Positions 4,677 through 34,560 of a DNA stretch of 64,000 bases are shown here, in pieces. Below the pieces are notes generated by a model. That model was not told the origin of the DNA and searched no databases. It saw only the letters and a program-made list of their open reading frames with translations. The position numbers and the translations under genes were made by a program. The stretch comes from a virus, in the IMG/VR virus record IMGVR_UViG_3300033388_004609, positions 1-64,000 of that record. The stretch is one strand, 5' to 3'. The first letter of the stretch is position 1. The number at the start of each line of letters is the position of its first letter.

Positions 4677-5480
4677 CTAATGTTTTACAATGGTTAATGT
4701 CATGTGATTAATATCAAACGTATCTGATGTAGTGTCCGATGTTCCGTATATCTCAATATAATCATTCGTATCCATTTCTAACATCCAATTCAACCCTACA
4801 CAACTATCCTTATTTTGATTAGTAAATTTTCGTGCCATATTTGTAGCTTCTATCGTAGTACCATTTTTTGCTATACGAAATTGGGTTAACTGTTCTGTCT
4901 CCCCACTTTGGATTGATATATTACACGTAATAGTTACATGAATCGTTGGCGTTCCTGTGTAGGTTAACCGCCCATTTGATTCAGTGAAGCTATGTAGATG
5001 CCCTGACGTATAAGCCATTGTGCCTTCGTAGAGCTTCTCGAATGTCCCGCCTGTTCCGATTGTTTGTGTCCCGCCTGTTGAAATGTAAGTTAATCCGCCT
5101 GCATGAGAATTGCTTATAAATCCGGTTACACATAAATCACCTTCAACTTTTACAACATCTTCTTTAATATAGGCAGTATCAGCATGGGTGTTATAAATTT
5201 GTAAACCGTTGTCAAATTCTATTGTATCACCAATATCCAGATCATTTGTAACATCAATAAAATTAGTGATTAATGTATCATAAGTTATCTCTGAACCGTC
5301 TGCGGTTTCTCTCACGGTTGTCCCTCCTGTTGAGGTAGGTGATAATACCTTTACATCAGGAGTTGCCAGATTCGTTTGAAATATTGAATCCGTGACTGTA
5401 ATATTTTTAAAATACTTGTTTTGTCCAAATCCTATTAAAGGAATAAACAATACCATAATAAATAATAATAACTTTTTCAT
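4677..5480 (-). CDS. fibre-like protein with C1q/BclA-CTD-like C-terminus and Sec signal peptide
   Basis: MKKLLLFIMVLFIPLIGFG-Q signal; C-terminal GRLTYTG...IAKNG...LEMDTNDYIEIY jelly-roll pattern. Confidence 0.55.
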   Translation of the reverse strand: MKKLLLFIMVLFIPLIGFGQNKYFKNITVTDSIFQTNLATPDVKVLSPTSTGGTTVRETADGSEITYDTLITNFIDVTNDLDIGDTIEFDNGLQIYNTHADTAYIKEDVVKVEGDLCVTGFISNSHAGGLTYISTGGTQTIGTGGTFEKLYEGTMAYTSGHLHSFTESNGRLTYTGTPTIHVTITCNISIQSGETEQLTQFRIAKNGTTIEATNMARKFTNQNKDSCVGLNWMLEMDTNDYIEIYGTSDTTSDTFDINHMTLTIVKH

Positions 5481-5491
5481 GTCTATAAATT

Positions 5492-6199
5492 TTAACTATA
5501 ATTAATTGCAATATATTCTACTGTACTATTAACTGCTGGTGTTATTTTAAATCCATTTTTTGTTTTATTGGTTAATGCGAAATCTACATTATTCCCGCTA
5601 CCGTCATAACATCTTATCCCTATTGCATAACTTGTTGTACCTAATGCAGAATCAAATGTTATTGCCGTACCAGTCGTAACCACTGCCTCAACTGCTACTT
5701 TTATACTTGATGTATTCCCAAGTATTGCAACATATTCTGCCGTTTCATTAACTGCAGATGTTATCGTATATCCACCAATAGCTTTACTTGTCAAAGAAAA
5801 ATCAATATTATTCCCACTACCATCAAAACACCGTATTAAAGTCCCATAACCTAACCCTGCTAAAACAGATGAGAACGATATTGCTGTCCCGCTTGTTGTT
5901 ACTGCTTCACTAGCAAACCTTGTACTAGCTGATTCTCCAAATATAACAATATAATCTATTGTCCCATTAACAACCGGGGTTATTTTAAATCCAGTAGTTG
6001 CTTTATCCGTAAGCAAAAAATCAATATTGTTACCACTTCCATCATAACATCTTATAAATACAGAATAATCAGTAGATGATAATTTTGTAGAGAAAGTTAT
6101 TGTAGTGCCGGCAGTTGTAACTGCACTACTCCCAGCTCTCCCTCTAAGCGTTACACCTACTGTAAAAGGAATTCCTATACCTATTGCGTTACCAAGCAT
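5492..6199 (-). CDS. putative head-spike fibre with three tandem H-type-lectin/gp53-like repeats
   Basis: N-terminal MLGNAIGIGIP anchor; three ~70-aa repeats each containing IRC(Y/F)DGSGNN(I/V)DF. Confidence 0.6.
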   Translation of the reverse strand: MLGNAIGIGIPFTVGVTLRGRAGSSAVTTAGTTITFSTKLSSTDYSVFIRCYDGSGNNIDFLLTDKATTGFKITPVVNGTIDYIVIFGESASTRFASEAVTTSGTAISFSSVLAGLGYGTLIRCFDGSGNNIDFSLTSKAIGGYTITSAVNETAEYVAILGNTSSIKVAVEAVVTTGTAITFDSALGTTSYAIGIRCYDGSGNNVDFALTNKTKNGFKITPAVNSTVEYIAINYS

Positions 6200-6216
6200 T
6201 TTTTATATTTTAAATT

Positions 6217-6513
6217 TCAAAATAGAGCCCATAAATCATCTGCGACATTAGTACCGGTATCACAAATAATTTTTGTTAGTTTAACCGGGTTGTATCCTAC
6301 TTGTACAGGTATTACTTTCTCATCAACATTAACAGAATCAACAATTGTTAATGCACCTTCTGTTCCGGCAAGAAGTGAAAACGACTTACCAGGATCATAA
6401 TCTGATGTAGAAACATCAATTGCTTGTATATTTCCTGATTGTAAAACTGCATTAGTAAAAGTTTTAAGAACTGTTAATAATTGTGGTGTTACTTCACCTT
6501 TATTTCCTGCCAT
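6217..6513 (-). CDS. putative head-spike base protein (RcGTA Rcc01079-like)
   Basis: Pattern S..D......L.....G.L...D.......V..G..PV....I..TGT recalls the RcGTA spike base; precedes a fibre with a G-x-G-x-G N-terminus. Confidence 0.55.
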   Translation of the reverse strand: MAGNKGEVTPQLLTVLKTFTNAVLQSGNIQAIDVSTSDYDPGKSFSLLAGTEGALTIVDSVNVDEKVIPVQVGYNPVKLTKIICDTGTNVADDLWALF

Positions 6514-6536
6514 GATATTATATTTTTAATTATTAA

Positions 6537-6830
6537 TTACGTATTATAAGGTTCTAATAATCTGTAACAATGATCTATTATTGCCTGTATATCATTCTCT
6601 GTTAATATATTATATTCATTATTTATTGTTGTATCTCCTACTATATTGTAATCTTGTAGTAATACAACATATTTACTAACAAGAATATTCTTCGTGTTTA
6701 AATGATCAACATACCAAAAATTCCCTGTATGATAAGCCATACTTTTAGCAAGATCATCACCTAACCTACCATGGAACAATTGAATTATTCCAAGATCATT
6801 ATTTAACTGCGACTGATTCAATACTTGCAT
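6537..6830 (-). CDS. hypothetical virion protein
   Basis: Co-oriented within structural operon. Confidence 0.5.
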   Translation of the reverse strand: MQVLNQSQLNNDLGIIQLFHGRLGDDLAKSMAYHTGNFWYVDHLNTKNILVSKYVVLLQDYNIVGDTTINNEYNILTENDIQAIIDHCYRLLEPYNT

Positions 6831-9192
6831 CTTCGTATAATTTTTCTTTCATTAACTCATCAAGTACATACTCTCTCTCCGGATTAAACTCTTTATCACT
6901 CTCTATCCATCCTCTAATTGCTTCTTTCTCTGCTTTCATGTTATGATGTGCACTCGGGATAACATTATCTTTAAGGAAGTAATGTGACTTCTCTGATTCG
7001 AAAAATGTAAACCCTGTCAATATAATTTTCTTAAAATGTAACCATCTTGCTAACATTATAGCCATAATTCCTACACTTGGGAAAGCATTTATCTCTTCTG
7101 CTACTACAGTAAACATCTTTGCAAATTCATCCTCATCACTATAAGTAATAACATTCATTCCTCTTGCACGAAGATCATTTGCATTTTCATTCCAATATTT
7201 ATGCATTTGTTTTGCTGTAGTGTATTTTTGGTATAATGTATCACTTATTGGCAATATACCAAATATCGGATAAGTTACTTTCTTTTGAGGAATAATCTCA
7301 TGGAATAATGAAGATATATTTAAGTCGGTTCTTTTACCTATCTTCTCGTATCCCTTACCAACCTTAAAATTATTACATCTCATTATAAATGAAAGTGTAA
7401 TCTCTTTTGACAAATTGGTTTTGAATGGTCCATTACCAACAACTGTACATGCATCCATTTCACTAATCATAGGCTTAATTACATCCCTTACAGACCTTTT
7501 AATAACACTTCTATTAACATCTGTCTTAAACCTTCTCGATGCTTGGTTATGTACTATAACGGGATTAGAAGATACTATAAGATCATTATCGAATATCTTT
7601 ATGTAGTCTGCTGGTAATGGTATGTAATCTAAAGTTGAAAATTCACTCATTATCTTTTGGAAATTCTTAGCATCAGGTAAGCTATTTGAATTATTCTCAA
7701 CAATCCACCTGTCAATAAGTCTTTGTACTCTTATGTTATTTGCAAAATACATCGTACCAGTAAGCATCTCATTCCATTCTTTAATCATATAGAATGATAA
7801 ATCTCCACTTACATTATCAAAGAACACCGGTTTCTTTAATACCTCTGCATCTGCATCAAGCCATACAACCGGTTTATTATACTTATTCATCACACTTTTA
7901 ATAACATGTGGTTTCATCTGTGTATTCTTCTCCCATGATCCCTGTGGTTTATAACCAATAAGTTCATATTTTATACCATACTTATCTAATCCTTCTTTAA
8001 GTTTCTCTATCTCTTGTTCATATGGAGTATCTACTGTAAACATGGAAGCAACAACATATCCTGTATACTTACCTTTTACCTTACCCATCTTCTCATGCGT
8101 AAATTCAAGATTCTTTTGTGCCTGCTCCCTTACATTACCAGGTAATCCATTCTGTTTATAATTCAATACTTTTTTATTAGCTCTCTCTGCTTTTTCATAT
8201 TCTCCTGTATAAAAATAACATATCCCTAATTCAAAATCTGTCATGATATCATATTGTACTTTATGAACAAACAACAAATCATTCCCCGGATAAGGCATAC
8301 TTTTTATCTTCTCGAAATACAATTTAGCCTGGTTATACTTTTTTTGCTCCCTACATAATACTCCAAGTGAATATAAACATTCAAACCTATGTGGCCGAAA
8401 ATCATATCCATCCAAGTAAGCTAACTTTGCTTTATCATTCTCTTTCAGGTTAGCAAGCATTATCCCTATTTGATATTTAGAATAATACACCTCTTCGGGC
8501 CATCCACCTTTATTTACTCTTTCCTGATAAAACTTTATCGCCTGTTTGTAATTCTTCATATTAGCATATGTCTGTGCTAAATAAAAATAACTCCTTACCT
8601 CTGATGGATTTTCCAGTATATCCTTCTCAAGTAATTCCTTGTCCCTAACAAGCTTCTCATGACGTGTACCGCCATCAAAATGATGATTAATCCACAAGCT
8701 CCGTAATTCAATTGGTTGGTTTAAAACGTCTGATGTGATGTATTCATGTGTTACTCCTTTATAATACCAATCTTTATGTCCACTAACAAATAATGCCTGT
8801 GCAAAATCTAACCCACCTTCATATCTTAAATGGTACATGTCGGCAGTTAGTTTACTCTTATCAAAATCTTTATTCCAATGTATTGTAAAATCTGCATCTG
8901 CTAATAACAAATAATCTGCTTTACCTTTTGCTTTCCGTACAAGTTCTGTCCTGTTATGTCCAAAATTCACAAATTCACTTTTATATACTTCTCCTTTAAT
9001 ATCATTTAATTCTCTATCAATTATTTCAAGAGTATTATCTGTGCTACCCGTGTCGATTATTACATAATAGTCAATAATCTCCCTACAGGAGTCAATAAGT
9101 CTTTTAATGATTTTTCCTTCATTTTTAACTATCGCACAAAGGCAGATAGTCTTTTCTATTTTCTTTTCATTCTTCATAATATACATCTCCAT
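6799..9192 (-). CDS. multi-domain glycosyltransferase (GT2-TPR + DXD GT-A/GT77-like + GT29-like)
   Basis: ICLCAIVKNE/DTGSTD/DAD GT2 motifs, then TPRs, then VVWLDAD...HNQASRR, then CTVVGNG..MRCN..GKRTD, PSVG...GF and HxxxxE sialylmotif-like motifs. Confidence 0.85.
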   Translation of the reverse strand: MEMYIMKNEKKIEKTICLCAIVKNEGKIIKRLIDSCREIIDYYVIIDTGSTDNTLEIIDRELNDIKGEVYKSEFVNFGHNRTELVRKAKGKADYLLLADADFTIHWNKDFDKSKLTADMYHLRYEGGLDFAQALFVSGHKDWYYKGVTHEYITSDVLNQPIELRSLWINHHFDGGTRHEKLVRDKELLEKDILENPSEVRSYFYLAQTYANMKNYKQAIKFYQERVNKGGWPEEVYYSKYQIGIMLANLKENDKAKLAYLDGYDFRPHRFECLYSLGVLCREQKKYNQAKLYFEKIKSMPYPGNDLLFVHKVQYDIMTDFELGICYFYTGEYEKAERANKKVLNYKQNGLPGNVREQAQKNLEFTHEKMGKVKGKYTGYVVASMFTVDTPYEQEIEKLKEGLDKYGIKYELIGYKPQGSWEKNTQMKPHVIKSVMNKYNKPVVWLDADAEVLKKPVFFDNVSGDLSFYMIKEWNEMLTGTMYFANNIRVQRLIDRWIVENNSNSLPDAKNFQKIMSEFSTLDYIPLPADYIKIFDNDLIVSSNPVIVHNQASRRFKTDVNRSVIKRSVRDVIKPMISEMDACTVVGNGPFKTNLSKEITLSFIMRCNNFKVGKGYEKIGKRTDLNISSLFHEIIPQKKVTYPIFGILPISDTLYQKYTTAKQMHKYWNENANDLRARGMNVITYSDEDEFAKMFTVVAEEINAFPSVGIMAIMLARWLHFKKIILTGFTFFESEKSHYFLKDNVIPSAHHNMKAEKEAIRGWIESDKEFNPEREYVLDELMKEKLYEDASIESVAVK

Positions 9193-9225
9193 GCTTTTAA
9201 GTTAATAATTTATTCTGTCATTATT

Positions 9226-9744
9226 TTAAGTTTTATAATCATCACATAATTTTGCTGCACTATCTGTATGTCCGGCTTGTGCTATAATTGCAGCAGTATT
9301 AGCCTTTCCTGTCCCAATTGCTGTACCCTGTGCTGCTGGCCCTATTTCTACATCATCTATATTGCTCCATATGTATTCGCTACTTTGATCATTTCGTGCT
9401 GCTTCATAATAAGTCGTACCACCATCAATATAGAAAATCAATCCTTTTTGTGGACCTGTATCTCTTAACGAATAAGCTCCTACTCCTGCAACAAATGAAC
9501 GACAAGCTCTTACCGAAGTAACATATAAAAAATATTTATAAAATATCGCTTGATTATCCAACGAAAATTGATGTCGCCAAACAACACTATTATTATATTC
9601 ACTTGAACTCCAATATTCGCCCCCACTAAAATTACCAACTTCATGTGCATAAAGATTAGTACGCATTGCTGCTAATTCATCTTTTGATGGTAAAAACCAA
9701 TCACTATTACACGTGTGATAAAATGTAGGCATGAAACGTTCCAT
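9226..9744 (-). CDS. DUF1566/Lcl (C-type lectin fold)-like protein, circularly permuted
   Basis: DWFLPSKDEL, YWSSSE, VRACRSF and GP..GLIFY...GTAIGTGKANT motifs. Confidence 0.7.
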   Translation of the reverse strand: MERFMPTFYHTCNSDWFLPSKDELAAMRTNLYAHEVGNFSGGEYWSSSEYNNSVVWRHQFSLDNQAIFYKYFLYVTSVRACRSFVAGVGAYSLRDTGPQKGLIFYIDGGTTYYEAARNDQSSEYIWSNIDDVEIGPAAQGTAIGTGKANTAAIIAQAGHTDSAAKLCDDYKT

Positions 9745-12653
9745 TATATCTTAAGTTTTACTAATTCTAATTTCATTGAAATTTTACCATATCTATCACC
9801 AGTAACTTTTAATTGTGGCCAAATTTCACCAGCAGAACCAGTCATATTCAATCTTATATCAGAATCACCAATAACCGGACTTCTAAATGTTACCGAACTA
9901 CCTCCATCAATAAACAATGCTCCTGTTGAATTAATGACACACCCTGCGTACAATTCTCTACAATAATCACCTGTGGTACCTGAATTTCCAGATTCCTGTA
10001 TCCATATAGAATTAATGTCAATAGCAAAACTAGTACCAGTAGGACAAGCAATCTTATTACTTGAATTATTCCCCGGATAAACATCATTATAATATCCTCC
10101 TGTTGTTCCACTTACATTACCATAACAATGTATAGTAGAATATTGAGCATCGCCTGTCTCACTAAATTTACCACTTGATCTTGCAAATTCACTATAATTT
10201 TCAGCTTTAGAATTTTCACCTCCTGCATTTGCATAATTATTACTTACTACATTACTCCTTCCTGACACAATACTAGAATTTCCATTCACATAATTACTGT
10301 AACCACCTACAATATTTTCGATAGAACCACCCGTTACAATATTATTATATCCTCCTACTAAATTATAATGAGATGCTTCACTAATTGTATTCTCTCTACC
10401 GCCAACAATATTATTATGTGAATAATCTATAATATTCGATTGACCACCTATAATATTCTGCGAACCAGAACCAGTAACGCTGCATGATTGTCCAAAAACA
10501 GCATTATATGCACCACCACTAATATAAGCATTTGATCCACCAATAATATTTCCTTCCGCATTTAACCCCGAACAATTACTCTTATTTCCAAAAACAAAAT
10601 TATATGATCCAACACCAGCAGTGGATTCATGACCAATTACGGTATTATATTCTCCCAAAGCTGTAGATCCCGCCCCTGTAATAACCATTGATCCTGTACC
10701 TGATGATTTCTTCCAATAATGTTCTTCTGCTCCACCAGTAGGTCCAGTAGGCCCTGTTACTGTCGAGTCGGCTCCTGTAGGTCCCGTAACTGTTGAGTCT
10801 GCCCCTGTAGGACCGGTATTGCCAGTAGGGCCAGTAACCATCGAATCAGCTCCTGTTGGACCTATTTCCCCCTGAATTCCCGTAGCACCAGTTGGACCAG
10901 TAGTATCTGAATCAGCTCCTGTAGGTCCTCGTTGTACGAATATATCCCAGTAAGTAGCTTCATTCACTCCTACTCCCGGCTCACTACCTGCAGTCGATGT
11001 ATGTGCTAATATACACACGTATCCATTACCGTTACTAAAAACACAGTCATTATATATATATGTTCCTGTTATCCATGTACCCGTCCAATTGTATGTCGCT
11101 CCAGATGATCCTGTAGGACCAGTTACAGTACTGTCTGCTCCAGTTACTCCTGTTGGTCCTATAGCTGCTTGCATAGCCATTACATGAATAGAACCTTCAT
11201 TTATTAATACTGTACCTGTATCAGTATTACTTCTCCTAAATACTCCTGTAAATCCATATGTTCCTGTTGCCAGTGCCATAGATTGATAATGAGCATATAA
11301 TGATTCGGGTTTATTATCTATATGATATTGTAAAAATTCAGGTCCTGTTACTCCATCTATGACCACCGCATATCCTCCTGTTGCTCCTGTAACACCTGTA
11401 CTCTGAACTGTAAGTGTCATTTCTGCATAAACAGGTACATTTGTATCAATTGTTATTGTACCTGTTAATCCGGGTATCTCTGTCCATACACCTGTCTGGC
11501 TCTCGATTGTAGAACTTAATTCCTGATATACATTTGGTACACTACCACCCGTTGCTGATGGTCCAACCGGCCCCAATGGTCCTGTCGGTCCAGGAGCATA
11601 TACCCCGCCGTAAAGATTCACCCACCATTCATTAAATGCACCTGATCCTGTATTACTTATTGAATTAACATTTAATAATCCACTATCAGAATCATAAGTT
11701 ACTACAGTTGCTTTAAATAATTGGCTATCTGAATGAGCAATAACAACATTCTGTCCTACTGAATAAGATCTTCCTGTACTAATAGACATACTCACATTAG
11801 TCGGGTGAGAGGAAGGGATTGTTTCTGTATCTGATGAAGTAGCAGCATATCGATCACCTAATCCATCCTCCCCATCTATCCCTGCTGTACCATCTGTCCC
11901 AGTAGATCCTGTTGGACCAGTAGGACCAGCTACTGTTGAATCAGCTCCTGTTGGGCCTCGTGCTCCAGTAGTTTCTGGAGGTCCAGTAGGTCCTGTTATA
12001 CCTGCTCCTGTAGGACCGGAAGGTCCGGTAGGCCCTGTAGATCCAGCAGCAGTTGAATCTGCACCAGTTGGACCTTTTTGTACAAACATATCCCAATATG
12101 TAGCCTCGTTTGCTCCTATTCCCGGTTCACTGCCTGCAGTTGATGTATGTGCTAATATACAAACATACCCATTACCATTGCTGAAAACACAATCGTTGTA
12201 TATATATGGTCCTGTAACCCATGGTCCAGTCCAATTATATGTTGCTCCAGACGATCCTGTAGGTCCGGTAATTGTGCTATCTGCTCCAGTAGGGCCTGTA
12301 ACTGATGAATCTGCCCCTGTTGGTCCTGTCGGTCCATCGAGCCCCTGTGATCCTGTTATCCCTCGCGATCCTGTTTCTCCTGTATCTCCCTTTGTACCTT
12401 GCAATCCGGTATTTCCTGTTGGTCCCTGACTACCTGTGATACCTGTTGGTCCAGTCGGCCCATCCACACCGGTTACTCCTACCCCAGTAGCACCAATACT
12501 TCCTGTTTCTCCTTTAGAACCTGTAACACCACTTAATGCTTTATCACCACCAAGATAGACAATATTCCCCTTCTCAGTCCTTGCAGCTTCGATATGTGTT
12601 GTACCACCTTCAATATCCGGTGATGATCCAAGAAATTTTGCTCCTGTGGCCAT
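9744..12653 (-). CDS. collagen-like (GPT-repeat) fibre protein
   Basis: Several G-P-T/G-x-T collagen tracts, duplicated CBM5/12-like module, C-terminal beta-roll (NIIGG) repeats. Confidence 0.85.
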   Translation of the reverse strand: MATGAKFLGSSPDIEGGTTHIEAARTEKGNIVYLGGDKALSGVTGSKGETGSIGATGVGVTGVDGPTGPTGITGSQGPTGNTGLQGTKGDTGETGSRGITGSQGLDGPTGPTGADSSVTGPTGADSTITGPTGSSGATYNWTGPWVTGPYIYNDCVFSNGNGYVCILAHTSTAGSEPGIGANEATYWDMFVQKGPTGADSTAAGSTGPTGPSGPTGAGITGPTGPPETTGARGPTGADSTVAGPTGPTGSTGTDGTAGIDGEDGLGDRYAATSSDTETIPSSHPTNVSMSISTGRSYSVGQNVVIAHSDSQLFKATVVTYDSDSGLLNVNSISNTGSGAFNEWWVNLYGGVYAPGPTGPLGPVGPSATGGSVPNVYQELSSTIESQTGVWTEIPGLTGTITIDTNVPVYAEMTLTVQSTGVTGATGGYAVVIDGVTGPEFLQYHIDNKPESLYAHYQSMALATGTYGFTGVFRRSNTDTGTVLINEGSIHVMAMQAAIGPTGVTGADSTVTGPTGSSGATYNWTGTWITGTYIYNDCVFSNGNGYVCILAHTSTAGSEPGVGVNEATYWDIFVQRGPTGADSDTTGPTGATGIQGEIGPTGADSMVTGPTGNTGPTGADSTVTGPTGADSTVTGPTGPTGGAEEHYWKKSSGTGSMVITGAGSTALGEYNTVIGHESTAGVGSYNFVFGNKSNCSGLNAEGNIIGGSNAYISGGAYNAVFGQSCSVTGSGSQNIIGGQSNIIDYSHNNIVGGRENTISEASHYNLVGGYNNIVTGGSIENIVGGYSNYVNGNSSIVSGRSNVVSNNYANAGGENSKAENYSEFARSSGKFSETGDAQYSTIHCYGNVSGTTGGYYNDVYPGNNSSNKIACPTGTSFAIDINSIWIQESGNSGTTGDYCRELYAGCVINSTGALFIDGGSSVTFRSPVIGDSDIRLNMTGSAGEIWPQLKVTGDRYGKISMKLELVKLKI

Positions 12654-12688
12654 AATTAATATTCTTCAAACATTCTTCAAATATTCTT

Positions 12689-13450
12689 CTAAAACTCTAC
12701 TTCTACTTCTCTAAAGTCAAGTATTTGATTAATCTCAGCAATTATATTATCAAGTGCCGTTTCGTTTGCTGATGTTATAGCACTTTTTAATGATTGTAGT
12801 AATCCATTAGCAGTTATTGCATCTGCAAGATAAAGATCTCTTTCAGTACCACTAGTCATTCTTGCAATATTAGCAAACATTGTTTCTATTCCTGCTTCTG
12901 CATTACAATAAACATATGGATAAAAAGTACTCTTGTACATTACTGTACCGGTAGATGCTCCATCATCAGCAACCCAAGTAGCAGCAACATGGAAATTATT
13001 AGCATCAACTACCGTGGCATAATAATCAGCATTATAGTTTGTAGTCCCAGTAATAGAAGCATACATACCTGTGGTAAGACCGTGTCCTGTAGCATTAATT
13101 AATACTGCACCATCAACAGTTGCACCATAATCAGCATACGAAGCTATTGCAAAATCAACAGTTTTTAATGAATAAACAAAGTTATATAAACCATCTACAT
13201 AGGTCCCTGTTATATCATTGAAATCGAATGTACTTGTTACCGGTGAACTAATCTGTGATAACACATTATTATCAGTATATGTTGCAGAGGGAGTTATTAC
13301 ACGAACTATTGCTTCTGTAAGAGTAGATGAATCCAAGCCGGATACACCATCCCATTTATCTCCATCTCCTGTATCAACACCTGTCTTCTCTTCGATACGG
13401 AATACTTTGCATCGTTGTGCTACCGTTAAATCCAGATCTGGTGTAAACAT
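12689..13450 (-). CDS. virion structural protein
   Basis: Beta-rich with HGLTTGMYASITG insertion; in structural block. Confidence 0.55.
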   Translation of the reverse strand: MFTPDLDLTVAQRCKVFRIEEKTGVDTGDGDKWDGVSGLDSSTLTEAIVRVITPSATYTDNNVLSQISSPVTSTFDFNDITGTYVDGLYNFVYSLKTVDFAIASYADYGATVDGAVLINATGHGLTTGMYASITGTTNYNADYYATVVDANNFHVAATWVADDGASTGTVMYKSTFYPYVYCNAEAGIETMFANIARMTSGTERDLYLADAITANGLLQSLKSAITSANETALDNIIAEINQILDFREVEVEF

Positions 13451-13472
13451 TATTTATTCTCCTTTCTTGTTT

Positions 13473-13510
13473 AAAAAAAGAGGGAAGAGGAAAAAATCCT
13501 CATTTCTCCT
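13473..13510 (-). terminator. possible intrinsic terminator
   Basis: GAGG-ATTTTTT-CCTC stem followed by a U-tract just after the stop of 13509..14798. Confidence 0.4.
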
Positions 13511-14798
13511 ATCCGTTTGTCATCGTGGTATAAGCATCCAGAACATCACTTACAATATCCGGAGCTTCAGCGCCTGTAAATCCTGCTTTAAAAGCAAGTA
13601 TTAATTGCTTCTTGCGTCTTGGAGTGGCACCAACACCCTCAGTTGGATGATCACTATAATAAGTCATACTTATCTGATCATAATAACCGCTTGTTGCTGC
13701 ATCACTCTTATGTGCTGACCACATTGGATCTGCATTATAAGGATTACCAGCATTACCCAAAAGATCATATTCCAATTCGGCAATCTCTGCATAATAACCA
13801 TGACCAAGAGACATTTCCGTACTTGTTGCAGATACAGTATCTCCAAATCCATCATCCAATCCTACATCAAAAGATACTTTACTATACCTTTTCTTAGGCA
13901 TACTAAACGCTCTTGCAATACCGGTAAGCTTAAGACCGAAGTCTGCAGCATTAGCAGTTGCAGCTAACAATACCTGGCAATAACCACTACCGGTTGCATA
14001 CGCACCACTCGCGGCTTCAATGGGTCTGTCAACCGAAAACTGTGTACCTGAATCAAGTGATAACACTTTATATATACCATCAGTTAATACATTCTCAGTC
14101 GTGCTTGTAACACCAAACCTTACATAGTCTCCTACTGCCAATTCAGTACCGGTATTATACTGACTGTTCGTTCCAACAGTTACGGCTTTTTCTCCCTTAA
14201 CAATAGTACATGTATGATCAAAGTCATATGCTGTATCTACTGCTACACTATTAAGTAATTCAGACTTAATAGGTTGCACTGCTTGCCTGCGAAGAGTATT
14301 TGACAATATAAGAGCTAATCCATTAGCAATCTCTGCTTGTGTTGCAGCAGCATCAGATTTATAAGCACCATTAAGAATAATCTCTTGACCAAATCCTGTA
14401 AGATCTTGTTCTTTTAACAGTAACCTTATAACATATAAAGTACTGTTATTTACTTCAATGTCATTTGCAGAACCATTATAACCGATATATGAAATCTGTT
14501 CTGCAATAGCAGTATCAGTCTGACCTTTGTAATTCAGAATATTATCCTCTGGAATCAGATCACTCTCAATCAGTTTTGAACCACTACGTTGTATAATCTT
14601 ACAACCGTATTTTTTTACCAAGTCATCTGTTAAAACAGTTGTAGCACTTAGTACGATATTATGACTATTAACAACAGCCATTTCACCATCCGCCAAATAT
14701 GTATCGGTGGCTTCATAAATTGGACTATCGGCAGAAGTTGTAGGGCTTGCTCCGATATCTTTGCCAATCAATAATTGCATTACATCATTTTGTGTCAT
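13509..14798 (-). CDS. auxiliary capsid/structural protein (crAss-like)
   Basis: Size, position after ring proteins, G.G....IAELE motif. Confidence 0.55.
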   Translation of the reverse strand: MTQNDVMQLLIGKDIGASPTTSADSPIYEATDTYLADGEMAVVNSHNIVLSATTVLTDDLVKKYGCKIIQRSGSKLIESDLIPEDNILNYKGQTDTAIAEQISYIGYNGSANDIEVNNSTLYVIRLLLKEQDLTGFGQEIILNGAYKSDAAATQAEIANGLALILSNTLRRQAVQPIKSELLNSVAVDTAYDFDHTCTIVKGEKAVTVGTNSQYNTGTELAVGDYVRFGVTSTTENVLTDGIYKVLSLDSGTQFSVDRPIEAASGAYATGSGYCQVLLAATANAADFGLKLTGIARAFSMPKKRYSKVSFDVGLDDGFGDTVSATSTEMSLGHGYYAEIAELEYDLLGNAGNPYNADPMWSAHKSDAATSGYYDQISMTYYSDHPTEGVGATPRRKKQLILAFKAGFTGAEAPDIVSDVLDAYTTMTNG

Positions 14799-23679: not shown

Positions 23680-26600
23680 TTAAATTTTTAGTTGTTTTTT
23701 TAATTCTCTCATTTTTAACATTTTTGCAAATGGATCTGCTTTCTCCATGGCTTTATATTTAAACATATCCATTCTTGCAAAAAAACCTGGTACCTCCAAT
23801 GCTTTATGTGATTCCTCCGGATCGAAATGCATCATGTCTTCTTTAAGAAGCATCAACATTCCAAATGCGCTTACTCTGTCAAAATTACCGTCTTTATGCC
23901 AATATATAAATTCCTGTAATAATGGAATAGATCGTATTGTATGTAAATTCATTAACTCACTACTACTGCTAACTTTAGTCACCAAATGTATTAATGATAA
24001 TTCTCTCGCCCATTTATTTATTCCCTGTGTACCAGGAGATCCTTTTCCACGATTAAGTACTACTTTATCAACTACCTTATCAGCTACTACCTTTGGAGTA
24101 TCACAAAGCAAGTATGAAGAGAATGTATTATTCATATAAGTCCCCATACCCTTGCAATCATTCTCGTAATTACACTTAGCATTATAATATATTAGTAACC
24201 TGCGAACATTTTCATAATACATATTCGCTGTCAGTGGCCGACCAGTATATTCTGCAACAATTCTACCTGTCACTTTATTCATGACAAATGTTGAACCAAG
24301 TGAATCTGTTGTTGAGTCATCATGGTCATATGTATCGTTACCAGCTATATAAAGTCCATACGGCACTTCTCCATCCTCTCCTGTTACTGGATGCTCATAG
24401 ATCACTATACACCCTTCTATAAGCTTCTTATCGTTTAAAGGGAATGTTCTAATCGGTCTTGCCTCAGGATCTAGTTTCCATTCAATCTTTTCAGTCTCCG
24501 GGTTAATTACAAGTTTACCAACATACTCTGTGTCTTCGAATTTTTCAGGGTGAGTTCTTACATACGCAAGATGTTCTTTAAGATCATTAATAGGAAAGAT
24601 AGTACCACCAATACGCATACATGCTTCCTGTGGTGTCTTGGGTTCTTCTGCAATGTGTCTTATTATTGCTTCGGGATTCTTTGTTTCATTTCTTACTTTA
24701 TCCCTATCAGCCTCTATTAGTTTATCTGCAAGTTCTGTATCTGAATTACCATCCTTATCCATGGTCCCTTCAAGATTCTTTAATACAGAAGAAAAGAAAC
24801 CAGACTTCGATCCAGCAGTTGTAGTATCCCATATATTAGGAACCATATGAACATTATATCCACCACCTTCATAATAAAGTTGCTCTAACCCCATAAAGTC
24901 TTGATTTTCAGTTCCTCCAGTTTGTTTGGTTATAAAATTGTTTGAGATATATGTATTTGTGTAAGCTGTATGAAGATTATAAATATTCTGCATCCCTATA
25001 TATTCAACCTTTGTAACAGATTCGGTTCTAAAATTAGTCATTCCTTTTTTGCCAATAAAAAAATGACCTTTATCATTATCAGGATTCAATTCGAAAACAC
25101 CTTTATTAATTCTGCTTCTATCTATAGAATTAGATTCATGTATCCGTCTCAAGACTTCCACTTTTTTCTTAGACAAAAGTTTAATATTCTTTTCGAAATT
25201 CTTTACATCATTTATATTTGTAATATACAATCTATAAACATATTCTTTACCACCACTATATCCGCTAGTTCTCTTCTCTTTGATTATATTACCATGAATG
25301 CCAAACTTCGTCAACTGATAATAAACCTCCTTAAGTAAAGGTTTAATATTACTCGTCAATACTACTCGAACTGTTTTCTTTTGCTTAGTCCATGTCACAT
25401 GACCATCTGCATCAAAATAGCCTGCAAGTAAATCAGAAAGTGATTTTTTATTATATTCGTGAATATTCTTAGGGAGCCTTTTATCATCTTTTACTTGTCC
25501 GTATATACCAATATCTTTTAATACATGTGAAAAGTTCTTTATTCCTACCGAATCATGCACTCCTCCATTACTCATAAATTTTGATTTGTATATAGAGGTA
25601 TCATAATTTTTCTTAACATATTTTAATATTGAATCGTCTGCACATGACAATTGAGGAGTTGCTCCTTTTGTATAATTTCCATCACCAATTAATAATCCTA
25701 TTAATCGAGCATCTTTTATATTCTTTTTCCCAAATACAGGAACTTCATCAATCTTTAATAATTGATCTCCTGGTTTTATATTTTTTGTTAATGTAAACGA
25801 AACTCTTCTTCCTGCCTGAAATTTTCCATCCATATATTTATACCATTGAGGTCTTGTCCACATTAATGGATGATCTCCTGAACATTCTATATAATTTTCT
25901 CCTGAAGTTGTTATTCTATAACATGGCTTTTTTTCAGGAGGTTTAAACCATTTTATTTTTTCTTTATAGGACTTATAACCATCGTAACCTATAATTCCAT
26001 CCTCTTGTTGTAAATCTTCAATATTTATTAGTTTTCCATCTTTCGTCCATACTTTAGTTCCTGCACAAACACAGCCGAAGGATGCTTGCAAACCAAAAGT
26101 AAGTCTTCCTTGTTGCATACTTTTTAAGGAGATGTTCCATGCTTTTAATAAGTTAGGATTTTTTCCGCTCTCTTCATACAGTATTAATTTTCCACGCTTG
26201 CCACGTGCTTTGTTCCAATTGTTTTTTAGACTTACTCCTATTATCTCTGACTTAAATCCTTTCTCTATTTTTAATCCATTCCTCTGAATATAGTAAGAAG
26301 CTCTTCTATGCATTACACTATTATGGACCTGTCGTCTTTTTCCCCATGGAGTATGATTTTCTATATGAGTCATCATATCCCATGCCTTGGTTATTATACC
26401 ATCTTCAATAAGATAATCTTTATCATCCGCAAAACAATAACTTTTACTTCCTGGAATAAGATAATAATTACGATTACACATACCGCCACCTTTAAGACTA
26501 AATCCTCTCCCCCTGGTTTTGATTACCACTGCATGTTCACCACTCTCTTCTGCATCATTCAGATAATGAAAATATGTATAATCATTATCCCAAAAATGAG

Positions 26601-29421: not shown

Positions 29422-30531
29422 TTAAGGGAAAGCTTTACACATAGAATCATTGATTATTACTTTCTCAACTATTTCATTATAACTACCGAATGTGCATCTA
29501 GGACAATCTTTTACTTTAATATCGCGTATCATTTTTCTATGAAATTCTGTATTCCATACTTTAAGTATCTCTACTGGATCCGGATCATGCTTGCATAATA
29601 TTAAATCCTTTCTTCCGCGCATGTCAAAACATGTATGAACATTACCATCAGCACCAAATGTAGGTAACAAAGGAATCGCCCAACATCGTGAGAAATTTAC
29701 TTTACGTGAGAAATCCGGATTGAACTTATGTCTTATTCCATACACTCTAAAATATTTTGTTTCAAGTTTCATCCCTTCATTTAATTGCTTATTTATCCTA
29801 TCAATTAAACTTGTATAATCCGGTTTTCTTATTACATGAGGTAGATTATCCCATCCTGCCGGTCTTAAATGAAAATCATGTACTCCTATTTCTTTAGCCA
29901 ATTTTATTGCATCATATATCTCTAATGCATTACCAGGAGTTAAAAGAAATTTGAATGCCACATCACATTTCGAATTAGTATCTCTAATCCTTTTTACAAC
30001 TTTCTTAATATTTTCTATTACTAATTTAAACATTCCACCACCATTAAGTCCCTTAAGTTTATTATATGTTTCTGTTGTTGCTGCATCTACAGAGAATCCT
30101 ATCCATCTTGCTGTACGTGCTATTGCTTCTATATGATACTCCTTCATAATAGATCCATTAGTAATAATTCCTATCTCCATACCATGATAATACATTCTAT
30201 TATACAAACTTACCAAATTAGGATTCATAAAACTCTCACCGCCACCAGCGATGCATGCTGAATTAGGAGTCTTATGTCTTGTTGAATTTCTCCAATCAGC
30301 TAAAAAATCCACTAATTTTATCATATGTTTCTCTGACATATCCATCCCACTTTCATGTATCATCTTCCAAGCATTACAATGCGGACATTTAAAATTGCAT
30401 CTATTTGAAGGATCAATATCTACGGTTATCGGTGGTAAGTAATCTTCTTTAGCACACCCTTCAAGATGTTTTCTCCACAATAACACTTTTGCACTATTAA
30501 ACGGATTCCAAGGATTAGACCATTCTTTCAT
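29422..30531 (-). CDS. radical SAM protein with SPASM/twitch domain
   Basis: CNFKCPHC, GGGE, C...ADGNVHTC...CPRC. Confidence 0.9.
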   Translation of the reverse strand: MKEWSNPWNPFNSAKVLLWRKHLEGCAKEDYLPPITVDIDPSNRCNFKCPHCNAWKMIHESGMDMSEKHMIKLVDFLADWRNSTRHKTPNSACIAGGGESFMNPNLVSLYNRMYYHGMEIGIITNGSIMKEYHIEAIARTARWIGFSVDAATTETYNKLKGLNGGGMFKLVIENIKKVVKRIRDTNSKCDVAFKFLLTPGNALEIYDAIKLAKEIGVHDFHLRPAGWDNLPHVIRKPDYTSLIDRINKQLNEGMKLETKYFRVYGIRHKFNPDFSRKVNFSRCWAIPLLPTFGADGNVHTCFDMRGRKDLILCKHDPDPVEILKVWNTEFHRKMIRDIKVKDCPRCTFGSYNEIVEKVIINDSMCKAFP

Positions 30532-30536
30532 AATCT

Positions 30537-31232
30537 TTACTTTAAAATATCATTTAAATAATGTAATGAAGTTTTTAGTTGGCTATCATCAGTATCGTAA
30601 TCGTAAATAATTTTCTTTGCTTTTTCATTAACATGTAACTTTTTAGATAACACATTAGTAATCTCTTGTACTGTTATATTGTCGCTACTATACAACCTTA
30701 TTATTTCATTCCTTTTAGAATACAAATATTCTTTGATTTTCTTTGCTACTTCTGTTACAGCAATTAATTGCAGTTTTGAATCAGGGGTTAAATATACTTC
30801 CTGATTTGTCACTATATCGTTAACTACACCTTTTCTTGCATCCTTACCTATAACAGCACAGCAACGTATCACTAACCAATTATCACAATATCTTTCAACT
30901 ATTTGTTCTGCCAGATATCTATTAAGCCCATATATATCAATATTCTTTTCTGCATCAATAGTTGATATGTATATATATTTATCATATTTGAAATGACTAA
31001 ACGAATCTATCACAGTTGTCACAGATGTCTTAAAATCCCTTTCTGGATATCTGTTTGCCAGGAACTTTGTACTATTACCATTTGCATTAATTAGTATATC
31101 AAACTCTTCGCCAACGTGGCTACGATAATTACTTTTCGTAATCTCTATTATTTCAAAATCTTTTTTAAGCGATAAAGCAATATTTTTGCCTATAAATCCA
31201 AGTGCTCCTATTATTCCTATTTTCATAATCAA
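30537..31232 (-). CDS. NAD-dependent epimerase/dehydratase (nucleotide-sugar SDR)
   Basis: GALGFIG Rossmann motif; YGLNR in place of YxxxK. Confidence 0.8.
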   Translation of the reverse strand: MIMKIGIIGALGFIGKNIALSLKKDFEIIEITKSNYRSHVGEEFDILINANGNSTKFLANRYPERDFKTSVTTVIDSFSHFKYDKYIYISTIDAEKNIDIYGLNRYLAEQIVERYCDNWLVIRCCAVIGKDARKGVVNDIVTNQEVYLTPDSKLQLIAVTEVAKKIKEYLYSKRNEIIRLYSSDNITVQEITNVLSKKLHVNEKAKKIIYDYDTDDSQLKTSLHYLNDILK

Positions 31233-31256
31233 ATAATTTCATATTTCAAAAATTCA

Positions 31257-32075
31257 TCATTCATAATTACAATTTAATTTAATCCATTCAAAAGGAATTA
31301 TATTAATATTTGAATTATTGCGATCTATTGTCCATTGATTCGGTACTATAATAATTTTATTCGGATTATTGATTAACCATGAACCCCACCAACTAAATGA
31401 ACTATTAGCAATTATTGAATGCTTACACTTACTCATAAGATATATGGTTTCATAATCCGTAAATTTCTCAAGTGTAACATCAATAACTTCTCCGAATTCG
31501 TTCTTCATCCATTGATAATCATCACTAACTCCCACAATTAATGAATCAGGAAACCATTTATTCATCATAGATAGTGCCCTTATATAATAATTTTTTTTTT
31601 TTTTTTCATGAGCTTTTCTAGCGGCAACATCCACAACTATCTCATTCCTGCGTATATGCATAAAAATAGGTTCTTTGTTTCCAGTAATACGTTCCTCCAT
31701 TGCTAGTAATTGAGTAGTTATGTACTCTTCTTTTAATATAAACTCTTTTAATATTACATTTCTATATTGTTTAAAGTATTCTTCGGCTTGCCAATAACCA
31801 TCAAGTATTACATTTTCATTACCGAATTTTTGTATTAGGTCTATATCCCATGCAAATATTCTCTCTTTTATCAATCTTGCATCCTTTGACTTTCCGCGAT
31901 TATTAGCAATATTAAATTTATCAAGAACAAATGGATAAGGGTATTTTCTGCGGGGATTATTATACGATGAAATATCCAATATCATACTTGTATCATTAAA
32001 TAAAGATAATGCTCTTGCTGTAGCGTATTGAAACATCTGATTTCCTAATCCTCCTTTAATTTTTATTGTTATCAT
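31257..32075 (-). CDS. GT11 alpha-1,2-fucosyltransferase-like
   Basis: GGLGNQMFQYA, GYWQ, HIRR, SDD, IANSSFSWWG motifs. Confidence 0.9.
   Translation of the reverse strand: MITIKIKGGLGNQMFQYATARALSLFNDTSMILDISSYNNPRRKYPYPFVLDKFNIANNRGKSKDARLIKERIFAWDIDLIQKFGNENVILDGYWQAEEYFKQYRNVILKEFILKEEYITTQLLAMEERITGNKEPIFMHIRRNEIVVDVAARKAHEKKKKNYYIRALSMMNKWFPDSLIVGVSDDYQWMKNEFGEVIDVTLEKFTDYETIYLMSKCKHSIIANSSFSWWGSWLINNPNKIIIVPNQWTIDRNNSNINIIPFEWIKLNCNYE
31591..31606. repeat. 16-nt homopolymer (A16 on coding strand) inside the GT11 gene
   Basis: T16 on plus strand; encodes EKKKKN. Confidence 0.9.
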
Positions 32076-32081
32076 TATTGA

Positions 32082-32648
32082 TTATTTTGATTTTTGAAAC
32101 ACCATTATTGTATTGGCAAACCAGGACAATGTACTATGAGTTCTTAAAAATAATGTAGTAGTGTTATCGTAGTTGAATTTATTATCGACCATTTTACTTA
32201 TAATATAATCGTTATTTCTATTATTCACATGACCAAATCCGCCTTGTCCTTCTTTTGCCCAACTTAAAATAACTCTATCTCTTGCTGAATTAATAATATT
32301 TTCTAAAAATACCGATTCATACTCTTCCGGTATATGCTCTCCAACCTCTAAACATAATACAAGATCATGTTTACCAAGATCAGTTGGAATTGTAAAATCC
32401 TGAACAAAACATGTATTACCGGATAATTCTTTCGTATAAGGATTACCATCGTAACCATAACAAACAAACCCATTGTTATTGAGATAATTGGTATAATCTC
32501 CGTTGCCACAACCAATATCAATGATTGTAAGGGGTTGCCAATTATTTAATAGTAGTATAATTGCTTTACATAATATTTCATCAAATGCATGCTCTGAATT
32601 ATCATTCATAAGCCAATACCCTTTTTTATGTATTTTATTTACTTCCAT
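32082..32648 (-). CDS. class I SAM-dependent methyltransferase
   Basis: IIDIGCGNG, LCLEVGEHI, GQGGFGHVN. Confidence 0.85.
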   Translation of the reverse strand: MEVNKIHKKGYWLMNDNSEHAFDEILCKAIILLLNNWQPLTIIDIGCGNGDYTNYLNNNGFVCYGYDGNPYTKELSGNTCFVQDFTIPTDLGKHDLVLCLEVGEHIPEEYESVFLENIINSARDRVILSWAKEGQGGFGHVNNRNNDYIISKMVDNKFNYDNTTTLFLRTHSTLSWFANTIMVFQKSK

Positions 32649-33892
32649 ACTTCCAATGCTTTTTTATTATAATTATCTATATCTTTTGAAACCTCGTTTC
32701 TCAGTATATTATAATTATTCTTAGCAATTCGTGGACAAAAATAATTATATGGACTTTGATGTGAGAACATAGCCAACTCATAGGTTTTCCCAATTAATCC
32801 ATATTCTTGACAAGTATCGTATAGTGCAGTACCTTTATATGGAGTAAAGAAACTTAACGTAATCCTGAACGGTTCAAGACTCTTAATAAATTTTATAGTG
32901 TTTAATATTGTTAATTCCGTGTCATGAGGAAATCCGATAATACAATATGCCTTCCATTGAATCTCATGCTTATTAAGTAATTCAGCAGCTATCCGGAATT
33001 GCTCAACTGTTTCTCCTTTACTTATTGTTTTTAATATATCACTATTTGAACTCTCAACACCTATACTCATTTGTCCACAATTAGCATCTTTCATCATTAC
33101 TATCTTTTCTTCAGTAAGTATATCGGCCCGGGTATCACATCTCCACTTTACCGGTAAATCATAATTTGCACAAAATTCCTGTAATCTTTTTCCGTTTAGA
33201 GTAAATACTTCATCCCAAAAGGTAAAGTAATCTGTTTTGAATCTTTTATAAATATAAGTCATTTCCGATAATAACCTAGGAACAGATTTGTATGTTACAC
33301 GTCTTTTCCACATTACCTTTGATGCACAAAAGGCACAATTGAACGGACAACCTCTTGAAGACAATAAATGTCCATAACCATTAGGAGAATATTTATCTAA
33401 TAATATATCATAATCAGCAAATGGAAGATTATCCAAATGTGATATCCGCCCTCCATTCGATTCATATTCTCCTTTGAATACTTCTACATCTTTAGGATAT
33501 GCATCTATCTCTGCCATTGGATGATTACCACCTACAATAACATCTATACCATATTGTTTGGCAATTTTAATTATCATCAGTGCAGACCGATACTTAACAT
33601 TCAAAACGTTAATACCTATCTGATCGGGTTGGATATCTTTTATTAAAGTATGGAGTTCCTGCCAAATAGGATGTTCTTCGTTATCAACATTGTCAATATA
33701 CCGATCATAATCATCAGATCTTCCGGCATAACCTTTATAATTTGTACCAGGACCAATCTCCATATTTTTTAAATAAACTTCCTTGCCTTGCTTCTTCATG
33801 AAGGATCCTACAGCAAGTAATGATAATGGTACATAATCTTGTTCAAGACCTATAAATCTATAGAATGGAGGATTGATTAATAATACTTTCAA
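32639..33892 (-). CDS. B12-binding radical SAM enzyme (class B methylase-like)
   Basis: LLINPP/VGGNHP cobalamin-binding domain; SRGCPFNCAFC; GVES. Confidence 0.9.
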   Translation of the reverse strand: MKVLLINPPFYRFIGLEQDYVPLSLLAVGSFMKKQGKEVYLKNMEIGPGTNYKGYAGRSDDYDRYIDNVDNEEHPIWQELHTLIKDIQPDQIGINVLNVKYRSALMIIKIAKQYGIDVIVGGNHPMAEIDAYPKDVEVFKGEYESNGGRISHLDNLPFADYDILLDKYSPNGYGHLLSSRGCPFNCAFCASKVMWKRRVTYKSVPRLLSEMTYIYKRFKTDYFTFWDEVFTLNGKRLQEFCANYDLPVKWRCDTRADILTEEKIVMMKDANCGQMSIGVESSNSDILKTISKGETVEQFRIAAELLNKHEIQWKAYCIIGFPHDTELTILNTIKFIKSLEPFRITLSFFTPYKGTALYDTCQEYGLIGKTYELAMFSHQSPYNYFCPRIAKNNYNILRNEVSKDIDNYNKKALEVWK

Positions 33893-34560
33893 ATTATCTT
33901 TTGTTTGAATTGTTTAACATAATCCCTGTGTCCGTGTTGTATATCACTATAATCTGCTTTTTGCCATACTAGCGGTGGATTAAATGCAAATGCCTGGCAT
34001 TCTTTCTGCATTGTACATAAAAATCCATCTGCCGAATTTGTTAAGTATGGCCTATCGCTTGTCATTCTCTTTAGTACTCTCGAAAAGATTCTGTTATGCA
34101 AAGCATATGCATGCGTTGACATCATATCAAAAACTTTTATAATATGATCATTGTTGTCATTTATACTTACTGGCCTTATGCCATTCATGTTATACAATCC
34201 TCCAAGATAAAGCATGTCCCAATAATAAGGAACTTCTTTTATTCTATCTTCAAATACCATATTAAAAAAATCAATGAATTCACAATCATCCTCAAGTATT
34301 AATATAGATTCATATTTTTTATGTATTGCTTCCTTAATGATTGTTATTTGTGTTGATGTACCCCCAGCCACTCCATCAAACCCTCTCATTGGATGAGGGT
34401 ATTTGTCTCTCATCCAGCCCCACTCATTACCTTCTATACCTCTGAATACCTTTGCTTTTATACCAAGATTCCTGAATGTCTTTTTCATAGCAAGAAATCT
34501 ATCCCTTCTTCTTTTAAGGTTTATACAATATATCTTATCAAAGTACCTGTTCAGTGTCAT
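33889..34560 (-). CDS. GT25 family glycosyltransferase
   Basis: YCINLKRR.DR, ILILEDD, WDMLYLG, STHAY motifs. Confidence 0.85.
   Translation of the reverse strand: MTLNRYFDKIYCINLKRRRDRFLAMKKTFRNLGIKAKVFRGIEGNEWGWMRDKYPHPMRGFDGVAGGTSTQITIIKEAIHKKYESILILEDDCEFIDFFNMVFEDRIKEVPYYWDMLYLGGLYNMNGIRPVSINDNNDHIIKVFDMMSTHAYALHNRIFSRVLKRMTSDRPYLTNSADGFLCTMQKECQAFAFNPPLVWQKADYSDIQHGHRDYVKQFKQKII

Follow-up and report, generated by a model that had tools for sequence, protein, structure and literature searches.

Glycosylation of the virion by phages is known from very few systems, and glycosyltransferase (GT) family 29, or GT29, has long been treated as eukaryotic. Among phages, Crassvirales form an abundant and poorly understood order. 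Outside of phages, two systems come close to the one described here. In Clostridioides difficile, SgtA, a protein of 358 amino acids (aa) with a GT-A domain and four tetratricopeptide (TPR) repeats, is encoded beside bclA3 and in vitro adds β-O-linked N-acetylglucosamine (GlcNAc) to the Thr residues of collagen-repeat peptides from BclA3, while in the native BclA3 glycan this first sugar is capped by a further sugar (PMC7157674). In the chlorovirus PBCV-1, A064R consists of two rhamnosyltransferases and a methyltransferase and A111/114R contains three GT domains, and both proteins act serially on one glycan (PMC7826918). Here, we describe a locus within the first 64,000 nucleotides (hereafter the window) of the IMG/VR virus record IMGVR_UViG_3300033388_004609. 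A glycosyltransferase of 797 aa with three predicted catalytic domains (P0001; 6799..9192, minus strand) is encoded close to a collagen-like tail fibre of 969 aa (P0002; 9744..12653, minus strand) in the genome of an uncultured crAss-like phage (Crassvirales). On balance, the enzyme probably O-glycosylates the phage's own collagen-like fibre in the host cytoplasm, to judge from sequence and predicted structure. The identities of the domains, the conservation of their catalytic signatures, the position of the gene in the tail core and a recurrent pairing with Gly-x-Thr collagen genes are observed; what we infer is which acceptor and which sugars are used and in what order the steps follow.

A preliminary description of this locus, made from the sequence alone, had proposed that the protein fuses GT2 and TPR domains, a second GT-A domain with a DXD motif and a C-terminal domain with sialylmotifs, and this architecture is confirmed by Pfam, AlphaFold2 and structure searches. 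The gene callers used in public collections place the start five codons later, which gives 792 aa. An AlphaFold2 model built from 39 homologues has a mean predicted local distance difference test (pLDDT) score of 86.8 and folded units at residues 15-175, 178-369, 379-560 and 568-790. All three catalytic signatures, namely DAD at 99-101, D446/D448, and GNGP at 586-589 with H737-Y738 and H750...E755, are invariant across the 39 homologues (45-76% identity). No membrane segment or signal peptide is predicted in the enzyme, the highest 19-residue hydropathy being 1.5, and the protein is predicted to be soluble. The three-domain architecture recurs in at least 55 homologue clusters in metagenomes, none of them functionally named. 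In a collection of phage genomes, megablast with the locus gave no match and tblastn found single-domain relatives only. Several family members carry other domain sets: P0044 ends in a methyltransferase, P0055 ends in a rhamnosyltransferase, P0067 (1525 aa) joins RmlD, GT2 and GT29 domains, P0072 has the order GT2, GT2, GT9 and GT29, and P0071 contains a methyltransferase in place of the middle GT while retaining GT2-TPR and GT29. Such modular additions and swaps fit the expectation for a stepwise glycan builder. The fused methyltransferase of P0044 shares no homology beyond the S-adenosylmethionine (SAM) motif with the separate 188-aa methyltransferase of the phage.

The first module comprises a GT2 catalytic domain (residues 15-175; 8668..9150, minus strand) and a TPR repeat domain (residues 178-369; 8086..8661, minus strand). 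Pfam GT2 (PF00535) matches residues 20-105 with an E value of 9e-10, and the D99-A-D101 (DXD) motif is invariant in the 39 sequences. Directly after the catalytic domain, Pfam TPR_1, TPR_2 and TPR_12 match at about residues 185-310, where the model is an all-helical repeat. In a PDB profile search with this module, GmaR (3.3e-14) and SunS (6.8e-13) are retrieved; the first two units, residues 1-378, align as one piece to SunS and ThuS (VIA Z 23), and the GT2 domain has a GT-A fold in the alignment to SunS. GmaR, the flagellin O-GlcNAc transferase of Listeria, SunS and ThuS are the closest solved GT2-TPR relatives by both sequence and structure, and all of them glycosylate proteins or peptides. 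Their acceptors differ from the one proposed here, being Ser/Thr of flagellin or, for SunS and ThuS, Cys of a bacteriocin precursor. No glycocin-like peptide gene was seen at the locus, where the small conserved open reading frame (ORF) downstream has one Cys. To judge from its description in PMC7157674, SgtA is likewise a soluble GT2-TPR protein whose gene adjoins a Thr-rich collagen gene. Because of this precedent, the first module is read as a putative initiating Thr O-glycosyltransferase. SgtA is, however, a single-domain enzyme of a spore former, whereas the module described here is fused to two more transferases and encoded in a crAss-like tail operon.

The second GT-A domain (residues 379-560; 7513..8058, minus strand) contains the motif WLDADA at 444-449, in which D446 and D448 are invariant. 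Its best structural match is PBCV-1 A64R (2p72; VIA Z 17.9, root-mean-square deviation 2.9, 177 of 204 residues), followed by glycogenin at Z 15. The labels GT2, GT77 and GT29 had been suggested for the three domains, for checking with HHpred or AlphaFold; GT2 and GT29 stood, but GT77 is a weak label since PF03407 matches just 8 of the 39 homologues (best 1e-7) and has no match in P0001 at E <= 1. The domain is therefore better described as A64R/glycogenin-like, and only weakly as PF03407/GT77-like. In design, the closest viral analogues of the whole enzyme are PBCV-1 A064R and A111/114R. These are also viral, cytoplasmic, single polypeptides with three active domains for the glycan of a virion protein, a role that is predicted in the present case; in addition, the middle domain best matches domain 1 of A64R, and some homologues of the phage enzyme end in a methyltransferase. 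They differ in that they build N-linked capsid glycans in a eukaryotic virus, and chlorovirus enzymes have neither a TPR-linked initiator nor a GT29 domain.

The C-terminal domain (residues 568-790; 6823..7491, minus strand) is GT29-like and has the sialyltransferase fold. PF00777 matches residues 566-760, scoring 33.4 bits where the curated cut-off is 23, is the sole family to pass its cut-off, and matches 25 of the 39 homologues. The L-, S- and VS-like sialylmotifs that had been noted earlier prove to be real and are joined by motif III, with L at residues 582-623, S at 704-728, III at 737-739 and VS at 750-755. Their elements, C582-x-VVGNGP, IMRCNN, FPSVG...LTGF, SHYF and HH-x4-E (749-755), are invariant or nearly so in 39-50 homologues. 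Folded alone, the domain reaches a pLDDT of 92, and Foldseek places sialyltransferases throughout its top hits to rank 40. In a wide VIA search of 48,161 chains, four GT29 chains lead (Z 13.4, 13.3, 12.7 and 11.8), followed by the GT42 enzyme Cst-I (11.6), an MptE-type kinase (10.4) and a Maf glycosyltransferase (9.3). A domain profile built with stand-alone relatives of 190-270 aa finds porcine ST3Gal-I (pST3Gal-I) at 4.6e-22, ST6GalNAc2 at 2e-20 and CstII at no better than 2e-9, and motifs L, S, III and VS align residue for residue with pST3Gal-I and ST6GalNAc2. The results thus support GT29 in every testable feature of sequence and fold. Two traits of eukaryotic GT29 enzymes, the type II membrane anchor and the disulfide between motifs L and S, were not found, the motif-S Cys being absent. 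The subfamily is small, with 50 matches at E <= 0.001 among 1.84 billion representatives.

GT29-like proteins have also been described in bacteria, where they are known from sequence only, have been reported from Proteobacteria alone, have had no function assigned so far, and possess neither the membrane anchor nor the L-S disulfide (PMC5811610). The phage domain resembles them in lacking both traits, shares the GT-A variant fold and motifs L, S, III and VS with GT29 sialyltransferases in general, and is distinct in forming part of a phage multienzyme. A plant GT29 protein is a putative transferase of 3-deoxy-D-manno-octulosonic acid (Kdo) from its cytidine monophosphate (CMP) form, CMP-Kdo (PMC11288761). 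Neither a CMP-sugar synthetase (CTP_transf_3, PF02348) nor NeuB (PF03102) is present in this phage genome, and PF02348 is also absent from four relatives, one of them 97% complete. Synthesis of the donor by the phage was rejected on these grounds, and since no CMP-sugar synthetase is encoded, any CMP-activated donor would have to come from the host pool. CMP-Kdo is an obvious donor candidate if the host is diderm. The literature searches turned up no paper that describes a GT29 domain from a phage or a sialyltransferase from Crassvirales.

The proposed acceptor, the fibre, is the sole collagen-like ORF in the 86-kb genome and matches both Pfam Collagen and the BclA collagen region in PDB. It begins with a conserved N-terminal stretch of 90 residues (49-56% identity in relatives), after which come five collagen segments, broken up by two CBM5/12-like inserts and further globular parts; a beta-roll-like region follows them, and there is also a C-terminal domain. 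Counting runs of at least three, the fibre contains 75 Gly-x-y triplets, with Thr at 39 of the 75 Y positions, and Thr accounts for 12.9% of the protein. The preliminary description had spoken of dozens of GPT repeats, and while the fibre is indeed GPT-rich, the number of GPT triplets is 25, or about two dozen. An interruption of the form G-x-T-G-A-D-S-x-x-x-G is found seven times within fibre residues 110-640 and is also present in the fibres of five related loci (L001, L003, L004, L083 and L085) and of two loci with GT2-TPR only (L009 and L026); it may serve as a kink in the structure or as a favoured acceptor site. The Bacteroidota O-glycosylation sequon D(S/T)(A/I/L/V/M/T) was considered and rejected: although it is observed 8 times here against 3.4 expected, it shows no general excess in related fibres, and it is mentioned only in connection with the recurrent GADST interruption.

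It is proposed that the soluble enzyme is expressed late and modifies the fibre before or during assembly. The TPR repeats would hold an extended Gly-x-Thr chain, and the GT2 domain, inverting, metal-dependent through its DXD motif and SgtA/GmaR-like, would place the first hexose or N-acetylhexosamine (HexNAc) on Thr. The enzyme would then be expected to act on (GPT)n or GPTGADSTVTGPTG collagen peptides. The A64R/glycogenin-like GT-A domain would add a second sugar from a nucleotide-diphospho-sugar, and the GT29-like domain an acidic sugar in CMP-activated form, either Kdo or a nonulosonic acid, supplied by the host. It is further possible, if doubtful, that this crAss-like clade caps its fibre O-glycans with CMP-activated Kdo or a sialic-acid-like nonulosonic acid. 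The enzyme would then be the first functional member of the GT29 family in a bacterial virus, and the virion would gain a sialoglycan-like coat with effects on host recognition, on the evasion of defences or on the stability of the particle.

The link between enzyme and fibre, also put forward in the preliminary description, is supported by clade synteny, by the pairing of GT2-TPR and collagen genes elsewhere and by the SgtA-BclA3 precedent. Among the non-redundant three-domain loci from viral and metagenome sequences, nine of ten have a Gly-x-Thr collagen ORF one to four genes upstream of the enzyme, and the tenth has no upstream flank. In two relatives (G001 and G002), whose capsid proteins are 78-80% identical to that of this phage, the enzyme and the 97-aa ORF next to it lie within the conserved terminase-to-tail block, while the distal fibres are not conserved. 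Since the loci of the clade are not independent, the pairing was also examined in more distant GT2-TPR loci. Non-redundant viral or metagenomic loci with GT2-TPR only (35-47% identical; other phages and giant-virus bins) hold a collagen-like ORF in 26 of 83 cases, and many of these collagens are extremely Thr-rich at Y, as in L121 with 238 of 240 triplets. Of the 1309 ORFs in the neighbourhood of these genes, 42 are collagen-like, whereas 34 random viral loci have none among their 339 ORFs (Fisher p 1e-4). Bacterial GT2-TPR loci hold a collagen-like ORF in 34 of 80 cases, usually immediately adjacent and mostly in Streptomyces and Solirubrobacterales. In the cultured jumbo phage Tunturi_5, the GT2-TPR protein gp35 is encoded six genes from the tail fibre gp29, which has more than 100 triplets of the Gly-x-Thr type.

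Two further observations concern these distant loci. In Actinobacteria (Antrihabitans, Hoyosella, Streptomyces and Solirubrobacterales; L209, L211, L216, L235, L252, L254 and L267), GT2-TPR genes whose products are 36-41% identical to the phage module stand directly beside Gly-x-Thr collagen genes, and these pairs offer culturable systems for testing the link. In the Tunturiibacter phage Tunturi_5 (L205, PP885688.1), four tandem paralogous ORFs of about 285 aa occupy 9385-12803 between gp35 and gp29, and a nucleotidyltransferase gene is located directly upstream of gp35.

Several observations weigh against the serial glycosylation of the fibre by this enzyme, and the first group concerns the acceptor. 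The synteny within the clade comes from related loci that do not count as independent cases, and the random-locus control set is small and unmatched by lineage. When gene positions were permuted in the GT2-TPR-only viral loci, the collagen gene was within two genes in 12 of 26 cases compared with 8.3 expected, which is not a significant excess (p 0.08). No collagen gene lies within the flank in 57 of 83 viral and 46 of 80 bacterial GT2-TPR loci, and this collagen-free majority implies that the GT2-TPR family has other or distant acceptors. At the present locus, the two fibre-like proteins encoded downstream, at 4677-5480 and 5492-6199, contain 22-25% Ser+Thr. The enzyme may thus target other virion proteins, either instead of or besides the fibre, such as these Ser/Thr-rich distal fibres or capsid and tail proteins, and the glycosylation of capsid and tail-tube proteins in mycobacteriophages points in the same direction. 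As phage glycosyltransferases that decorate their own structural proteins, the mycobacteriophage enzymes parallel what is proposed here, although the enzymes are different, the acceptors are C-terminal extensions of the capsid and tail-tube proteins, the host is actinobacterial, and neither a collagen nor a GT29 domain is involved. We consider other virion acceptors unlikely, given that the collagen fibre always accompanies the enzyme, while G001 and G002 have the enzyme without conserved distal fibres, and that the collagen pairing recurs in independent lineages.

The second group of points against concerns the order in which the domains would act. The interdomain geometry of the AlphaFold2 model is of low confidence (predicted template modelling score 0.52), and 28 of the 39 homologues show weak matches, below the cut-off, to MptE/Maf-like families in the C-terminal domain. 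Maf enzymes transfer nonulosonic acids directly onto protein, and together with the Maf-like resemblance this means that serial capping is not the sole option. The domains may instead modify separate sites directly, for instance by a Maf-like transfer of a nonulosonic acid to Ser/Thr, or the last two may alternate as a polymerase that builds a repeating acidic polymer on the fibre. Foldseek lists a TPR-containing multienzyme, the capsule polymerase 8qoy, and P0071 retains GT2-TPR and GT29 even though a methyltransferase takes the place of its middle GT. GT29 chains nonetheless outscore Maf (Z 13.4-11.8 vs 9.3), PF00777 alone passes its cut-off, and known GT29 enzymes act on glycan acceptors. 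The serial action of viral A064R and A111/114R on one glycan (PMC7826918) also argues against separate sites or a polymerase, either of which we regard as improbable next to the serial assembly of a fibre glycan.

The source contig of 86,348 bp is viral with a CheckV completeness of 88%. The genome is crAss-like, an assignment made because of the identity of its major capsid protein, the PHROG matches of portal and terminase and a match to CrAss_Ring_3_4. The capsid protein is 36-38% identical across 97% of its length to those of the phages phi14:2 (Cellulophaga), DAC15/17 (Bacteroides) and cr85_1 and of uncultured crAss phages. Portal, large terminase and capsid match the corresponding PHROG families, and a protein encoded at 15101-15808 matches PF25710 (CrAss_Ring_3_4; 5e-30). 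That the enzyme lies within the structural operon, as stated in the preliminary description, is borne out by the gene order, which runs from the large terminase through the portal, the major capsid protein, the tail rings including crAss ring 3/4, the fibre, the enzyme and the distal fibres to the endolysin. The genes of this operon share one strand, and no terminator-like site was found between them on the coding strand at 6000-14000. A promoter scan of the locus gave a signal no better than chance.

Elsewhere in the window, an accessory glycan cluster of six genes (29422..34560, minus strand) encodes, by Pfam, a radical SAM protein, an SDR-like protein, a GT11, a methyltransferase, a B12-radical SAM protein and a GT25, and counting this cluster the phage has five GT domains in total. 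The cluster may serve in sugar supply or tailoring. It was rejected as an obligatory partner of the enzyme, as the GT11 is missing in four relatives, and tblastn shows that the cluster is not conserved in G001 and G002, save for weak radical-SAM matches. With the enzyme conserved and the distal fibres and the glycan cluster not, its gene behaves like one of the core virion module rather than like part of an accessory island.

A common assumption in the phage literature is that such glycosyltransferases serve to protect DNA or to change the host wall (e.g., PMC10202952). In the latter case, the enzyme would remodel host envelope glycans, those of surface glycoproteins, capsule or lipopolysaccharide (LPS), so as to exclude superinfection or to prevent progeny from sticking to debris. 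GT29-like, GT11 and GT25 families are indeed typical of LPS and capsule chemistry. The enzyme lacks a membrane segment, however, its gene belongs to the conserved tail core, the nearest characterised relatives of its first module act on proteins or peptides, and the pairing with collagen genes crosses lineages, so that a role in the envelope seems distinctly unlikely. Glycosylation of phage DNA for the evasion of restriction can be set aside almost entirely. The radical-SAM genes of the genome, whose role is unassigned, would leave room for it, but no profile or structure search revealed any similarity in fold or sequence to DNA glycosyltransferases, the TPR domain and the sialyltransferase fold indicate protein or glycan acceptors, and the gene sits among the tail genes, well away from those for replication. 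Both proposals fit poorly because the enzyme is soluble, is encoded in a conserved tail block and has characterised relatives that act on proteins and peptides. O-glycosylation of the collagen-like fibre remains the preferred reading.

Two small genes flank the enzyme gene. The fibre had been placed close to the enzyme in the earlier description, and a single ORF of 172 aa (9226..9744, minus strand) indeed separates the two. Its product is weakly Lcl_C/DUF1566-like (PF07603, E 0.0017) and matches phrog_4245 at 4e-15 at the C-terminal end of the profile. PF07603 corresponds to the C-terminal domain of Lcl, a collagen-like protein of Legionella; the 172-aa protein weakly resembles this domain and may be fibre-associated and lectin-like. 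A homologue occurs in some relatives only, having been seen solely in L006. On the other side, the 97-aa gene (6537..6830, minus strand) shares 32 nt with the 3′-end of the enzyme gene and is always kept with it, at 53-60% identity and in the same position in L002-L006, L008, G001 and G002. Searches of Pfam, PHROG and Atlas gave no lead for this ORF.

Other features of the genome stand apart from the enzyme and its fibre. The large terminase ORF (23680-26973, minus strand) is 1097 aa long, with the terminase match limited to residues 685-1056 and a weak match to a DNA-primase PHROG at residues 344-528. The long form is also present in G001, and G002 matches the C-terminal 414 aa only. Outside the window, a 5570-aa ORF at genome positions 69574-86286 (minus strand) has about 31% identity, across 3700-4500 aa, with ORFs of G001 and G002 and is probably a crAss-type giant virion protein. 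A related 17-kb contig, JAGHCS010000009.1 (L206), assigned to a Candidatus Cloacimonadota metagenome-assembled genome, encodes a three-domain enzyme at 6001-8394 that is 93% identical to the one described here. Its neighbours are the same as in this phage, namely a 433-aa and a 253-aa protein, the collagen fibre and the 97-aa ORF. Either the contig comes from a phage and was mis-binned, or it hints at a Cloacimonadota rather than a Bacteroidota host.

The O-glycosylation of collagen-like repeats is known, and what appears to be new in this comparison is its fusion into a viral multienzyme with a GT29-type domain. The locus offers a concrete and testable enzyme-substrate pair, as proposed here, in Crassvirales. 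It would extend the SgtA-BclA3 logic of collagen O-glycosylation to viruses, and a chlorovirus-like strategy, in which several transferases are carried on one polypeptide, to a phage, and it shows that a GT29-type domain can occur in such a virus. Glycosylation of the fibre, if real, would bear on the determinants of host range, on phage antigenicity, and on enzymes for the glyco-engineering of collagen-like peptides.

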